Positions 11,388 through 17,669 of a stretch of 38,173 nt of DNA are shown piece by piece. Positions within the stretch are counted from its first letter, which is position 1; each line of letters starts with the position of its first letter. The stretch comes from a virus. Its lineage: Duplodnaviria > Caudoviricetes. The notes under the pieces are model-generated. The model did no database searches, was not told where the DNA came from, and saw only the letters and a list, made by a program, of their open reading frames with translations. The stretch is from the IMG/VR virus record IMGVR_UViG_3300037461_000613, positions 1-38,173 of that record. One strand, given 5' to 3'. The translations under genes were made by a program, and so were the position numbers.

Positions 11388-11885
11388 TTACGCCTCCTTG
11401 ACCGGCAGGCAGAGCGAGCAGTAGGCCGCGAGCGCCTCGGCCTCGGTGGCTTTGCCCAGGTGCGTGTTCCAGTATTTTTTATAGTAGGCGGCCTGGTCTC
11501 CGGGCGCCTTCGGGATCGGGCCGGGCTTCAACCAGTAGAAGCAGCGGGCGAGCGCCGTGGCATAGGCCAGGTTGTGGATGATGTCCCGGTCGGTGAGCTG
11601 GCCGTCCTGGCCGTCGACGGCGAGATTGAGCGCCATGAGCTTCGCATGCAGTGCCGGGTGGCGCAGGGCGAGCATGGCAAGCACCGAGCGCTCGCTGGCC
11701 GGCTCAACCTGGTAGATCCCGCGTGCCGGGCCCTTGATCTGCACGAGGTATTTTCCGAGCTGGGTCTCCTGGGCCGCGGTCAGCATGAGCAACTCGACGG
11801 CCGCCTCAGAATATGGGATCTCCGGCTCCAGGTGGCGCAGGGTCTCGCGGATCAGCTGCCTCAAGTGGTCCTTATGGATTGCCAT
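11388..11885 (-). CDS. Endolysin, lysozyme-like fold
   Basis: AVELLMLTAAQET...GPARGIYQVEP...YYKKYWNTHLGKAT; AGGAGG RBS before ATG 11885. Confidence 0.8.
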   Translation of the reverse strand: MAIHKDHLRQLIRETLRHLEPEIPYSEAAVELLMLTAAQETQLGKYLVQIKGPARGIYQVEPASERSVLAMLALRHPALHAKLMALNLAVDGQDGQLTDRDIIHNLAYATALARCFYWLKPGPIPKAPGDQAAYYKKYWNTHLGKATEAEALAAYCSLCLPVKEA

Positions 11886-12090
11886 GATCTCCTCCTTTGT
11901 TTCGGGCGGCATGCTGGGCGGCGTGGTTGTCGCAGTGGCCGTCCAGGTCCGTCCGGTGGTGCATGCACCCGGTATCGTGAGGGCCGGCGGGGAAATAGAA
12001 TTCGCACCCGCAGCGCTCGACGTCGTCGACGGCGCCGCAACTGGACATCCCGCAGCCAGTGATGCAGAAATTAACGCCGCCGGGAGCCAT
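11872..12090 (-). CDS. Small Cys/His-rich protein
   Basis: 72 aa, 7 Cys and 7 His, GC-rich third positions, overlaps the endolysin start. Confidence 0.6.
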   Translation of the reverse strand: MAPGGVNFCITGCGMSSCGAVDDVERCGCEFYFPAGPHDTGCMHHRTDLDGHCDNHAAQHAARNKGGDHGNP

Positions 12091-12094
12091 CTTT

Positions 12095-12358
12095 TCACCC
12101 GGCCGGCTTTTTGGCCTCGATCGCCTTGAGCGCCGAGCGCTCCTTGCCCTGCTGGTATTGCAGGACGATGGCGCCGACCATCCCGGCCAGCTGGATCAGG
12201 CCGTCGATGACCACCTGTACGACCGGCAGAATAGAGTCTGCCGCGTCGGTGATTTTCTTGCCGACCTCGGGCTGGATCGCCCCGCCGCCGACACCCAGTC
12301 CGACGATGGTGGCGATCATGCGGCCCCAGAATTCAGTCGTTTTCCATCCAGCTTTCAC
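12095..12358 (-). CDS. Putative holin
   Basis: GWKTTEFW N-terminus, two hydrophobic segments, basic C-terminus, AAGGAGG RBS, upstream of the endolysin. Confidence 0.65.
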   Translation of the reverse strand: MKAGWKTTEFWGRMIATIVGLGVGGGAIQPEVGKKITDAADSILPVVQVVIDGLIQLAGMVGAIVLQYQQGKERSALKAIEAKKPAG

Positions 12359-12454
12359 AGCGCGCCTCCTTTTTTGGTTTCCCCCGGCGGATCGGCGGGA
12401 GCCGTCGGTTCGGACGTCTGCCCCCTCATCGGGCCTCGCCGCCGGGGAAATCGG

Positions 12455-12673
12455 TTAAAGCCCCGGCCGGATCGGAATGGTCGGGGAAATGTCAACGGGC
12501 GGACTTGTGTCCTGCTTGTACTGGTCTCGGTGCTCGGCCTGGACCTCCAGGCGCACGGTGACGTCCCGTCAGTCGGACATCCAGAGGTTGTACTCCCTGG
12601 GCGTATGCACGACCGAGCAGCCGGCCAGCATCAGAACCAGCGCAAATACGAGTCGAGTTGATCGAGCTCCCAT
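12455..12673 (-). CDS. Small lipoprotein with in-frame UGA at codon 35 (candidate selenoprotein or pseudogene), o-spanin-like position
   Basis: MGARSTRLVFALVLMLAGC lipobox; TGA at 12571-12569; frame stays open for 37 more codons to TAA 12457-12455. Confidence 0.55.
12524..12562 (-). promoter_or_regulatory. Bacterial SECIS-like hairpin downstream of the in-frame UGA
   Basis: GUC-ACC-GUGC-GCCUGG-[AGGU]-CCAGGC-CGA-GCAC-CGA-GAC; apical loop begins after 22 nt following UGA. Confidence 0.4.
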
Positions 12674-13131
12674 GTCACCATCGCCTTGTCGATCGGCAGG
12701 AACGGCTTGATATTGAGCACCGGAACGGCCGCGAGATCCGGCAGCCGCCGCTGCAGCAGCAGGAGAAAGGCCGGATTTAGCTTGGCCTTATCCATCACCT
12801 CCTTGTAGAGCGACTCCATGGTGAGGATGTCTTTTTCAACGACCCACTTGCGCAGCTCGGCCGATGTCTTGCGCAGAGCCGGTCCGTCAACGATCTTGGT
12901 GCCCAGGCCGAGCAGCGTCGCGTCGATGATGATCTCGTGCATCTGCTCGGGCTGGAGCTGGAGCTTTGCGCCGATGGCGCAGATCACGGATCCGGCATAC
13001 TCCGGCTTGAGGCACACGGGGGTCTCGGGCGGCTTGTAGATCTGTCCGAACTGGGGGCATCCGGCCAGGATCATCACCATGGCTATTATCAGGGCCAATC
13101 CGCAAAGTTTTCCGTTGATGTGATTTTTCAT
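12631..13131 (-). CDS. Lipoprotein in the lysis cassette
   Basis: LALIIAMVMILAGC lipobox; two further Cys in the mature part. Confidence 0.75.
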   Translation of the reverse strand: MKNHINGKLCGLALIIAMVMILAGCPQFGQIYKPPETPVCLKPEYAGSVICAIGAKLQLQPEQMHEIIIDATLLGLGTKIVDGPALRKTSAELRKWVVEKDILTMESLYKEVMDKAKLNPAFLLLLQRRLPDLAAVPVLNIKPFLPIDKAMVTWELDQLDSYLRWF

Positions 13132-13535
13132 GGGTTCCTCCTTTGGTTTTCGGACATGACTGTCATGTCCTCGGAAAGTTGTTCGACGCGCTCGGATAGG
13201 ACGGCGAGCGCCTGTTTGACATCGGACATCTGGGCCGCGGACTGCTCCTTGGCGTGCTCGCGGCGGGAGTCAAAAAGATCCATCTTGACGGAGAGCGCCT
13301 CGATCTTTCCGCAGGTGATCTGCTGGCACCGGGCCTGCTCGCGCTCGCATCCATTTCGCGGCATGAAGTGCGTCTGGCCGTCCTCGCGGTAAAGGGCGTG
13401 GCGCAGGGTGCTTGCCAGATCGGACACCTGGGTTGCGAGCTGGCGCTTTATGCCGCGCATGTCGGCCCAGATCAGCGCGATCGCGCCTACGGCGATAGTC
13501 GTTGGCAGCCAGGCCTGGATGGTTGCGACGTCCAT
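13128..13535 (-). CDS. Membrane protein with coiled coil (holin/antiholin or i-spanin-like)
   Basis: N-terminal TM (IAVGAIALIWA), heptad-rich C-terminus. Confidence 0.65.
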   Translation of the reverse strand: MDVATIQAWLPTTIAVGAIALIWADMRGIKRQLATQVSDLASTLRHALYREDGQTHFMPRNGCEREQARCQQITCGKIEALSVKMDLFDSRREHAKEQSAAQMSDVKQALAVLSERVEQLSEDMTVMSENQRRNP

Positions 13536-13991: not shown

Positions 13992-14037
13992 GAAAAGGGG
14001 CGCTGCCAGAGTGCGGGCTCCCGCAGCGCCCCTTTTC
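13992..14037. terminator. Bidirectional intrinsic terminator between tail/fibre and lysis genes
   Basis: 15-bp perfect inverted repeat gaaaaggggcgctgc / gcagcgccccttttc; the T run ending the stem on each strand supplies the U tract. Confidence 0.75.
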
Positions 14038-15302: not shown

Positions 15303-17669
15303 TCATGTTGCTGCGAAGGCCGGCCGGCCAAGCCTGGAGATGAATGCGGCGCGAGGCACGCGGGCGACGTGGGACGGCCGAGGCAAAGACGCCACGAACC
15401 GCACCTTGGCGAGCGCCACCGCGAGCGCCGAGTACACGATCGCATCGAGGAGCGTCGCCGCGGCGGCGTTCGGGCGCTGGAGCAGCCCGTCCATATTCAC
15501 CGCGTGGGACAGCTCGCCGAAAACAATTGCGTCCAAGCTTGCCAGCCGGATCTCGCCCCTCACGAGCAGCGCATCCAGGCTGATGAGTTGATAATTACCA
15601 GCTCCCGACAGGATGGCATCCAGCCCAACCTGCGGACCGAAGGTCCTGGTAATAACGGCGTCCAACTGCGGCGCGATGGTGCGCAGCGCATACAGCCATG
15701 CGTCCATCTGGACGGTTGAGGTTAGGCCGCTTTTCTGCAACATGGCGTCGAGCGTCAGGCTCTGAACCATGGAGCGCGTAATCACGGCGTCCAGGGCGGC
15801 GGAAAGCGCCGCCGAGGCGTATATCATGGCGTCGAGCGACGCCGCGCGGGTGAGGCCCGTGGCGGCCAGGAGCGCATCGAGGCCTGCTCCGATCTGGCCG
15901 GACGCAATCGAGTACAGGATCGCATCGAGCGCCGTCCCTGCGGTTCGGCCGGACTGGTTAATGAGGGCGTCAAGCGAGGCGGACCGGGTGAGGCCAGCCT
16001 TGTTCAGCAGGGCATCTATGGAGGCCGCGCGGGTGAGGCCGACCTGGTTCAGTAGGGCGTCTATCGCCGTCGCGGCGCCCATGCCGGCACGGTTTAGGCA
16101 GGCGTCAAGCGAGGCGGACCGGGTGAGGCCGGACGCGGCCAGAAGCGCATCGAGCGATGCCGCGCGGGTGAGGCCCGTGGCGTTCAGGCAAGCGTCAAAC
16201 GCTGCCGTTCGGACCGCCGCGATCTGGACCATGGCATCTATACTCACGGTCTTCTGCCCGGTGGCCTGCAGGTAGGCGTCCAGCGCGGCCGTCAGCGCCT
16301 GCGCCTTCTGGGCGATCGCATCGAGCGAGAGGGCTGCGACCATGCCGGACTTGCTGACCAGCGCATCGAGGGAGGCCGTCAGGCTGTAAGTGGCCGCCTG
16401 TATCAAAAGAGCGTCGATCCCGGTGGCGGCCGAAATGCCCTCCTTGTTGATGAGTGCGTCGATGGAGTGGCTCGCGGTGACGCCGGACCGGGTCAGCAGG
16501 GCGTCGAGCGACGCCGCGCGGGTGAGCCCGGTCGCGCCCAAAAGCGCGTCGAGCGCAGCGGTGCGCGTCCCCAGGACCTGCAACAGCGAGTCGATCGAAA
16601 GGGTAACCGGGATTGATTTTTGCAAGTAGGCGTCGAGCGAGGCTGTGCGCGACAACGTTTTCTGCACCAGAGAGTCAAGCGAGACCGTGCGGGTGTAGGT
16701 CTGCGCTCCGGCAGAAACATACTCATCCGCCCCAATATCCCATGTCGCCCCGCTGCCGCCTCGGTCCTGGCCGTCGATGTCGGTCTGGAACGGGAAGCTG
16801 GCATCGTTGTAGAGATTGGTGCCGTGACCTAAAGCCCCGGCATCATTTGACGCCAGGTGGAAATCGTCGTTGGCCTCATCGACAAACGAGAAGGTTTGGG
16901 AGATACGATCTCCAACAGCGCCGCCAGTGACCGTGTACCCCATAGACGAAACATCGGTGGCGTTGTAGCCACTTCCGGCGGCGTAATTATAGCCTGGGCT
17001 GGCGGGCACCGTGCAAGATAAAAAAATATTGTTTTTCAGGAGCAAGCTGTTTGGAGCAGTGTGCATCACGCCATACAGGCAGTTATGCACGGTGCAATTG
17101 AACATGATGTTTCCAGAGCCGCCGCCTCTCAGCCAAACCGCATAGTTGCCGTGATCGTAAAATATTGAGTTGTAAATGATCCATCCTATTGCAGTATATG
17201 AAGCTCCACAATAGATTGCCTCGGAATACCCATTCGCGCCGTGAATGATGCAATAACCAAAGCGCATTCCAGTCAGCGACGACTCCACATGAATAATATC
17301 AGCGCCGCCGGTATTCGAAACTTGAAGACCCTCAAAACGAGTGTAGGACGCGTTGCAAATGATGCTGTACCAATCGTTTGTAAGAACCAGCCGATACTTA
17401 TTTCCGGTTGACCACTTGCCGGCGTGACGGTAGCCCTCCGCTGGATCAGTCCAAATCTTGACGTATTGAGTCGAAGAAGTTGTCCAACCATCAATCGTGA
17501 CAGCCGTTGTGTCCGCCGTCCCGCCGGTACAGCGGCATTTGGCAACGGCGATTTCATCCCGCCCCCCGGTCAGGTCGCCTTGCTGGGCCGCCTCCCAATC
17601 GTAGAGCGAATCGTAATCAGCCCCGGCGCCAAGATCGGGGTCGATGATTTTGATGACTTCGGTTGCCAT
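15303..17669 (-). CDS. Fibre protein: N-terminal beta-helix with choice-of-anchor-Q-like end, then ~29 tandem 14-17 aa repeats
   Basis: IYNSIFY...FNCTVHN...LKNNIF; DFHLAS...DIDGQDR...WDIGADEY; repeats like TRAASLDALL. Confidence 0.8.
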   Translation of the reverse strand: MATEVIKIIDPDLGAGADYDSLYDWEAAQQGDLTGGRDEIAVAKCRCTGGTADTTAVTIDGWTTSSTQYVKIWTDPAEGYRHAGKWSTGNKYRLVLTNDWYSIICNASYTRFEGLQVSNTGGADIIHVESSLTGMRFGYCIIHGANGYSEAIYCGASYTAIGWIIYNSIFYDHGNYAVWLRGGGSGNIMFNCTVHNCLYGVMHTAPNSLLLKNNIFLSCTVPASPGYNYAAGSGYNATDVSSMGYTVTGGAVGDRISQTFSFVDEANDDFHLASNDAGALGHGTNLYNDASFPFQTDIDGQDRGGSGATWDIGADEYVSAGAQTYTRTVSLDSLVQKTLSRTASLDAYLQKSIPVTLSIDSLLQVLGTRTAALDALLGATGLTRAASLDALLTRSGVTASHSIDALINKEGISAATGIDALLIQAATYSLTASLDALVSKSGMVAALSLDAIAQKAQALTAALDAYLQATGQKTVSIDAMVQIAAVRTAAFDACLNATGLTRAASLDALLAASGLTRSASLDACLNRAGMGAATAIDALLNQVGLTRAASIDALLNKAGLTRSASLDALINQSGRTAGTALDAILYSIASGQIGAGLDALLAATGLTRAASLDAMIYASAALSAALDAVITRSMVQSLTLDAMLQKSGLTSTVQMDAWLYALRTIAPQLDAVITRTFGPQVGLDAILSGAGNYQLISLDALLVRGEIRLASLDAIVFGELSHAVNMDGLLQRPNAAAATLLDAIVYSALAVALAKVRFVASLPRPSHVARVPRAAFISRLGRPAFAAT
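15426..16700 (-). repeat. Coding tandem repeat array (hydrophobic-D-small-hydrophobic core)
   Basis: About 29 units counted in the translation; near-identical DNA copies around 15967 and 16102. Confidence 0.85.

Follow-up and report, generated by a model that had tools for sequence, protein, structure and literature searches.

A 72-codon lipoprotein gene on the minus strand of a tailed-phage genome probably encodes a selenoprotein of a new family, and we infer with similar confidence that the SelB of the host inserts selenocysteine (Sec) at its single in-frame UGA. The initial annotation had proposed that Sec is supplied by host machinery, and this proposal is supported by the conservation of the TGA, by relatives with Cys in its place, by conservation of the hairpin that follows it and by the Sec genes that the likely host group carries. 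The conditions that it gave for its refutation, as far as they concern sequence, all came out in its favour. Our best guess as to the role of the product is tentative: it may be a late outer-membrane lipoprotein of the lysis module, resembling an outer spanin (o-spanin) with a diselenide-linked dimer.

A conserved UGA codon and hairpin

The DNA analysed here, hereafter the window, is the entire virus record IMGVR_UViG_3300037461_000613 (38,173 nt), which is bounded by direct terminal repeats. Its sequence is that of a temperate tailed phage, with PHROG matches for terminase, portal, major head protein, tail fibre J, integrase and repressor. The candidate gene (12455..12673, minus strand) sits in a minus-strand block of small genes for membrane or exported proteins, with tail genes to one side and the integrase to the other. 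A promoter scan yielded no candidate.

The peptide with its in-frame UGA was confirmed exactly as first translated, and it can be placed on the minus strand, reading from 12673 to 12455 (no strand had been given earlier). Translated through one UGA, the ORF runs to a TAA after residue 72. It opens with a predicted lipoprotein signal peptide and the lipobox L-A-G-C19, with Ser at +2 (12617..12673, minus strand). C19 and S20 are invariant in 20/20 aligned UGA-containing members, and the LPAM_1 model is weakly matched in 2/16 members. The mature chain would have 54 residues, six of them Pro. The UGA is codon 35 (12569..12571, minus strand), 16 residues past the lipidated Cys, and is predicted to specify Sec; two alternating-hydrophobic segments flank this residue, and a Pro-containing tail ends the chain. 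The conserved coding region 3' of the UGA (12458..12568, minus strand) has the pattern xDVTVRLEVQAEHxDQxKQDTSP...IP. The earlier claim was of normal codon bias past the UGA; this frame has the best codon score, with a GC3 of 0.81. No protein family was identified in PHROGs, NCBIfam, Pfam or PDB, and AlphaFold2 monomer models from two alignments show only the signal helix (mean pLDDT of 62 and 65, pTM of 0.24 and 0.31). No second Cys/TGA pair was found in the window or at the 21 homologous loci; two matches look off-frame.

Locus scans returned 5 viral (IMG/VR), 18 metagenome and 2 genome loci. Removed from this set were L029 and L032 (duplicates of L010 and L005), L033, which is the copy in the window, and L034, a false match in Rhizobium. 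Retained were 21 distinct homologues (5 from IMG/VR and 16 from metagenomes, with several near-copies among them), making 22 loci with the window. TGA occurs at the equivalent codon in 21/21 homologues, 22/22 counting the window. In the homologues it lies 16-17 codons past the lipobox Cys, and the reading frame beyond it is open for 34-37 conserved codons in all 21. An internal TGA was not selected for by the search, because the anchors lay downstream of the site and the confirming query had Cys there. The 19 aligned homologues are 45-61% identical to the window. Over codons +12 to +23, the amino-acid identity is 0.89 whereas the third-position identity is 0.46, and thus the part past the UGA is under protein-level selection. 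A tree of the mature peptide, from which six duplicate or near-duplicate loci were left out, gave no resolution and no signal on Cys- versus Sec-ancestry.

A profile search of 1.84 billion protein representatives gave 18 matches, among them six long repeat-like proteins that were left out of the analysis. The remainder comprise four full-length proteins, five N-terminal fragments that break off immediately ahead of the site and three C-terminal ones; a second search added another full-length protein (P0025) and three more truncated N-terminal pieces. In all, eight database proteins stop exactly before the UGA site. The family is thus stored as split fragments of 30-35 aa, which constitutes a database blind spot. 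Cys occupies the UGA column in two of the five full-length relatives (P0003, E 2.6e-16; P0005, E 7.7e-11). It is absent from the other three: P0004 and P0025 have Ser, and P0011, for which the alignment register is ambiguous, has no Cys at the site. The suggestion that homologues would carry Cys or TGA at codon 35 held for all 21 loci and for two proteins but failed for these three, and we conclude that the chalcogen is dispensable family-wide. The search profile had C at this column, which is worth a few bits and cannot account for matches over the whole length. Queried with P0003, cultured phages gave nothing beyond chance (3 matches, E 0.8-0.9), and no DNA context for P0003 was found in viral contigs.

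The hairpin GUGC-GCCUGG-AGGU-CCAGGC-CGA-GCAC (12556-12530, minus strand) had been reported with exactly the pairing that we recover as the minimum free energy (MFE) fold. It was said to lie right after the UGA, but its lower stem begins 13 nt downstream of that codon and its loop 22 nt past it. The conserved part of this SECIS-like element is the upper stem-loop (12552-12537, with the AGGU loop at 12546-12543); conservation falls off in the lower stem. The hairpin of the window taken alone is not beyond chance (z = -0.85 against shuffles, in a genome of 62% GC), and loose hairpin rules also fire at 50/1047 or 228/1048 TGA triplets of the window.

Comparison of the loci indicates that the hairpin is selected as RNA: it is the conservation, and not the fold in the window alone, that exceeds chance. 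Codons +8 and +9 are invariant (GAG in 20/20, GTC in 22/22), and two-fold sites at +12, +13, +15 and +16 split 11:11. Synonymous diversity is 0-0.26 at codons +6 to +10, compared with about 0.5 at +11 to +13, +15 and +16. In two homologues of 36-37% GC (L010 and L005), GC3 is 1.0 in the hairpin as against 0.30 in the remaining gene; the L010 hairpin has z = -3.2, and that of L015 is weak (z = +0.85). The conservation anticipated in the initial annotation is borne out, with one compensatory change in L023, where a C-G pair has become U-A via two synonymous changes. A U-G wobble occurs in the stem of L007, and L028 retains a 7-bp stem and GGU loop although its peptide is altered (TLRVEA). Two-sided change is found at only 2 pairs (11/500 shuffles are as high), and many of the loci are near-copies. 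[quoted passage not shown] The model was passed by 22/22 loci versus 228/1048 (22%) control TGAs, and by 5/8 UGA sites of known selenoprotein families in the Desulfobacterales genome considered below.

Likely host and its selenocysteine machinery

An identical circular contig is binned in a metagenome-assembled genome (MAG) of Desulfobacterales (G001). The closest terminases (56-61%, 753-779 bits) were identified in 3/250 other genomes of the GTDB order, and two of the four closest matches lie inside contigs of 300 and 677 kb. Terminase matches in control-phylum genomes (n = 251) reach at most 193 bits. Given the co-binning and the terminase kinship, Desulfobacterales are the likely host group. 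No attB or CRISPR spacer match between the phage and the MAG was found, and the binning taken by itself is a weak link.

The MAG encodes selA and selB over the cut-off, as well as a UGA-containing selD. TGA is present in 5/8 of its MvhD/FlpD matches and in 1/13 of its molybdopterin oxidoreductase matches (FdhA-like). One MvhD/FlpD match (L058, G001:C381:7873-8223) contains two in-frame TGAs, and other copies have TGA at either of two positions. A tRNA-Sec was not found in the MAG among the 150 of 815 candidates that were scored. tRNA-Sec (UCA) is present in all three genomes of the order with the closest terminases, and selA is over the cut-off in 145/151 genomes of the order. The initial annotation called for selA, selB and selC in the host; selA, selB, selD and tRNA-Sec occur in the likely host group.

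Under the proposed mechanism, host SelB and tRNA-Sec would decode the UGA as Sec, guided by the hairpin 22 bases downstream: SelB would bind the AGGU loop and Sec would be inserted. Failed decoding would free a 16-residue lipopeptide, and since the chain then ends at 16 residues, the yield of full-length protein would be selenium-dependent. Sec recoding in E. coli is described as selenium-dependent and only 30-40% efficient (PMC4513850). Thus, if Sec is inserted, the UGA would endow a late gene with a nutrient sensor of its own.

Lysis context and possible role

Homologues of the gene are located in lysis modules, as judged from Pfam peptidoglycan hydrolases at four loci: the gene that follows in both L007 and L015 encodes a GH108 lysozyme, while in L009 and L026 a muramidase or SLT domain is found no more than about 1 kb downstream. 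In the window itself, neither the putative holin nor the putative lysin matches a lysis family. The neighbour that had been called a holin (12095..12358, minus strand) is predicted to be a membrane protein of 87 aa and may be holin-like; it matches no family. A candidate lysin by position (11388..11897, minus strand) matches PHROG 3108 (E 5.8e-33), which is of unknown function. Upstream, a lipoprotein of 166 aa (12631..13131, minus strand) overlaps the start of the UGA ORF by 43 nt. It is preceded by a gene for a protein with an N-terminal hydrophobic segment, a coiled-coil-like region and three Cys (13128..13535, minus strand), which could be holin- or i-spanin-like. Neither matches a family.

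In L015, a gene for an i-spanin-like protein with a transmembrane segment and coiled coil lies directly upstream, with its stop overlapping the lipoprotein start. At the other loci the upstream gene is mostly a second, unrelated lipoprotein, and there is no constant i-spanin. Among the genes that flank the homologue in L007-L031, the upstream neighbour belongs to one or another of several lipoprotein families that are unrelated to each other (L009 has three lipoprotein genes in succession). The membrane genes downstream are variable too, and the lysis block reads as a modular array of lipoproteins. In the phage-like lysis block of L023, the second gene downstream from the homologue encodes a caspase-domain (PF00656) protein (L023:1050-1838).

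By the Lol rule, the residue at +2 directs the outer-membrane sorting of lipoproteins. With Ser and no Asp at this position, the product is likely sorted to the outer membrane, where, lipidated at Cys19, it would serve as a late lysis-module protein. If Sec is inserted, position 35 is the sole free chalcogen. It lies in no CxxU or UxxC redox motif, which suggests pairing between molecules, and the role of Sec would probably be structural and non-catalytic. Diselenides withstand reduction by thiols and sulfide better than disulfides do. In a sulfide-rich periplasm, a diselenide-linked homodimer could substitute for the disulfide made by Cys29 of lambda Rz1.

The single Cys29 of lambda Rz1 is reported to make a homotypic disulfide, and periplasmic Cys to occur in 507/528 two-component spanins (PMC6139136). 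Given this precedent and the lysis context, an o-spanin-like diselenide dimer is tentatively preferred. Like lambda Rz1 and other o-spanins as described there, the phage product is a small lysis-module lipoprotein that has a Pro-rich stretch and a single free chalcogen, which could bridge homotypically. Unlike them, it has no significant sequence match: Rz1 and LysC family matches are below the cut-off (best NF038368, E 0.0011, with P0005) and may be signal-peptide matches, and the Atlas leads of P0003, Rz1 and RzoQ, are at lead level only (score of 0.87). The spanin role suggested in the initial annotation therefore agrees with the lysis-module setting but not with the want of a constant i-spanin partner, the sub-threshold family matches or the missing Sec/Cys in three relatives.

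The main functional alternative, though somewhat unlikely, is that the selenoprotein is not a spanin and acts instead as an accessory outer-membrane lipoprotein, in superinfection exclusion or receptor blocking. Phage lipoproteins of the exclusion or receptor-blocking type include Cor, Llp and Bor. The variable strings of unrelated small lipoproteins in which the gene is embedded are consistent with such a role, as is the inconstancy of any i-spanin partner. In addition, the gene was found in 0/400 other sampled genomes of the phylum and was not detected in the retrieved stretches around related Desulfobacterales prophage terminases, and thus looks accessory. However, a GH108 endolysin is directly downstream in two loci, an i-spanin-like gene precedes it in L015, and the Pro-rich tail and single free chalcogen are as in Rz1 (PMC6139136). 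The o-spanin-like dimer is the reading that we tentatively retain. In its broadest and speculative form, which we consider doubtful, phages that infect sulfate-reducing Desulfobacterota would own a lysis-module selenoprotein family in which a sulfide-resistant diselenide replaces the spanin disulfide, tying both outer-membrane rupture and host range to selenium supply and to Sec-competent hosts.

Other readings of the UGA and comparison with known systems

It is improbable that the UGA is instead read as Cys by a host selC* tRNA-Cys(UCA) and a second SelB, with the hairpin still acting as the signal. Cys relatives exist, and selC* with a second selB has been described in Desulfobacterales and Syntrophobacterales (PMC5389517), the former being exactly the host group considered here. 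However, one selB is over the cut-off in the MAG (an incomplete bin) and selA is near-universal in the order. Moreover, TGC would meet a permanent need for Cys, yet 0/22 close loci use it.

Ordinary readthrough, or a phage-wide reassignment of TGA to Trp or another residue, has a very low probability. In some phages, recoded stops are reported to be over-represented among lysis genes (bioRxiv 2021.08.26.457843), and the Ser-bearing relatives indicate that the residue can vary. Against this, UGA is an ordinary stop elsewhere in the window, as had been stated earlier: the 7084 codons of 20 core and lysis-block genes include 0 internal TGA as against 114 TGG, and TGA terminates 11/20 of these genes, several as ATGA overlaps. 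No tRNA genes, and thus no suppressor tRNA, or Rfam elements were found in the window, so a genome-wide signature of TGA recoding is absent, and two related phage records gave no match to tRNA-Sec. With neither internal TGA nor a phage tRNA, any recoding would be local and host-supplied. None of the relatives has Trp at the site, and the hairpin has SECIS spacing and a SECIS loop.

Equally improbable is that the UGA is a true stop that releases a 16-residue lipopeptide, the downstream part being a separate mini-ORF or reached by frameshifting. Gene callers do report the N- and C-terminal parts as distinct proteins (P0001, P0002, P0007 and others), and GTG follows the UGA in most loci. A true stop would be expected to drift to TAA or TAG, as is seen for the terminal stops of the 22 loci (TGA 11, TAG 8, TAA 3). 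Frame and spacing are fixed, and a single ORF joins both halves in five relatives. A separate mini-gene is also disfavoured because L010 and L005 have no ATG, GTG or TTG between the UGA and the conserved block.

The last reading, an error in sequencing or a nonsense mutation of recent date (a pseudogene), has in its favour only that TGC and TGA differ by one base. It is refuted by the occurrence of the identical TGA in 21 diverged loci, where purifying selection acts both before and after it, and by 0 differences in four DNA assemblies. The surrounding 3 kb is present in these four DNA runs at a depth of 12-30 (the runs may be source samples), which argues against an assembly slip and supports the TGA, doubted earlier. 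In three RNA runs, one 163-nt contig spans 12485-12647 with 0 differences; it may be DNA and so is not taken as evidence.

Sec insertion by host SelB, the preferred reading, uses a decoding mechanism that is already known, and it is the phage setting that is new as far as the literature was searched. No phage-encoded selenoprotein was found in that literature, which includes few subscription journals and leaves supplements aside. The main text of a review from 2026 on the selenoproteome of prokaryotes (PMC13188914) does not contain "phage", "virus" or "viral", and the viral selenoproteins described in PMC8310308 are poxvirus glutathione peroxidases. Should Sec be inserted, phages would be using the host machinery for the 21st amino acid for a family seen only in phage-like DNA.

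Selenoprotein genes of the E. coli fdhF type have a SECIS within the ORF that is read by SelB (consensus as given in PMC13188914). The present gene differs from these in being phage-encoded, with no Sec genes found in the phage, and in its tiny non-enzymatic lipoprotein product, which has no redox motif and belongs to no known family. The glutathione peroxidases of molluscum contagiosum and fowlpox viruses (PMC8310308) are likewise virus genes reliant on host Sec machinery, but they are described as host-captured enzymes with a eukaryotic SECIS, whereas the SECIS here is bacterial and the family was detected in no DNA other than phage-like DNA. As in stop-codon-recoding phages (bioRxiv 2021.08.26.457843), a stop inside a late or lysis-module gene could gate expression. 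Recoding in those phages is presented as genome-wide and dependent on suppressor tRNAs; here it concerns one site, with an mRNA hairpin and no phage tRNA. SaoX and SaoC (bioRxiv 2022.07.06.499078), exported Sec lipoproteins of anaerobes, provide a predicted precedent for the export and lipidation of Sec proteins. By that account they belong to a chromosomal, non-mobile ABC-transport operon and have CC/CU motifs, and no NCBIfam match links them to the phage protein.

Several other features of the window were identified. In the gap between the UGA ORF and the holin-like gene (12355-12456, minus strand) is a single long stem of -43 kcal/mol, with a z of only -0.5. An inverted repeat of 20 bp with a 6-nt loop (13992-14037) just upstream of the exported-protein block is a possible terminator or regulatory site. 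A protein of 788 aa (15303-17669, minus strand), with no clear family, has 45-nt (15-aa) repeats of the type "xxLDAxLxxxGxTRxA" in its C-terminal half. Also present, within the replication-initiator gene (172-1194), are three tandem self-complementary repeats of 31 nt (664-746) that resemble iterons or an origin.
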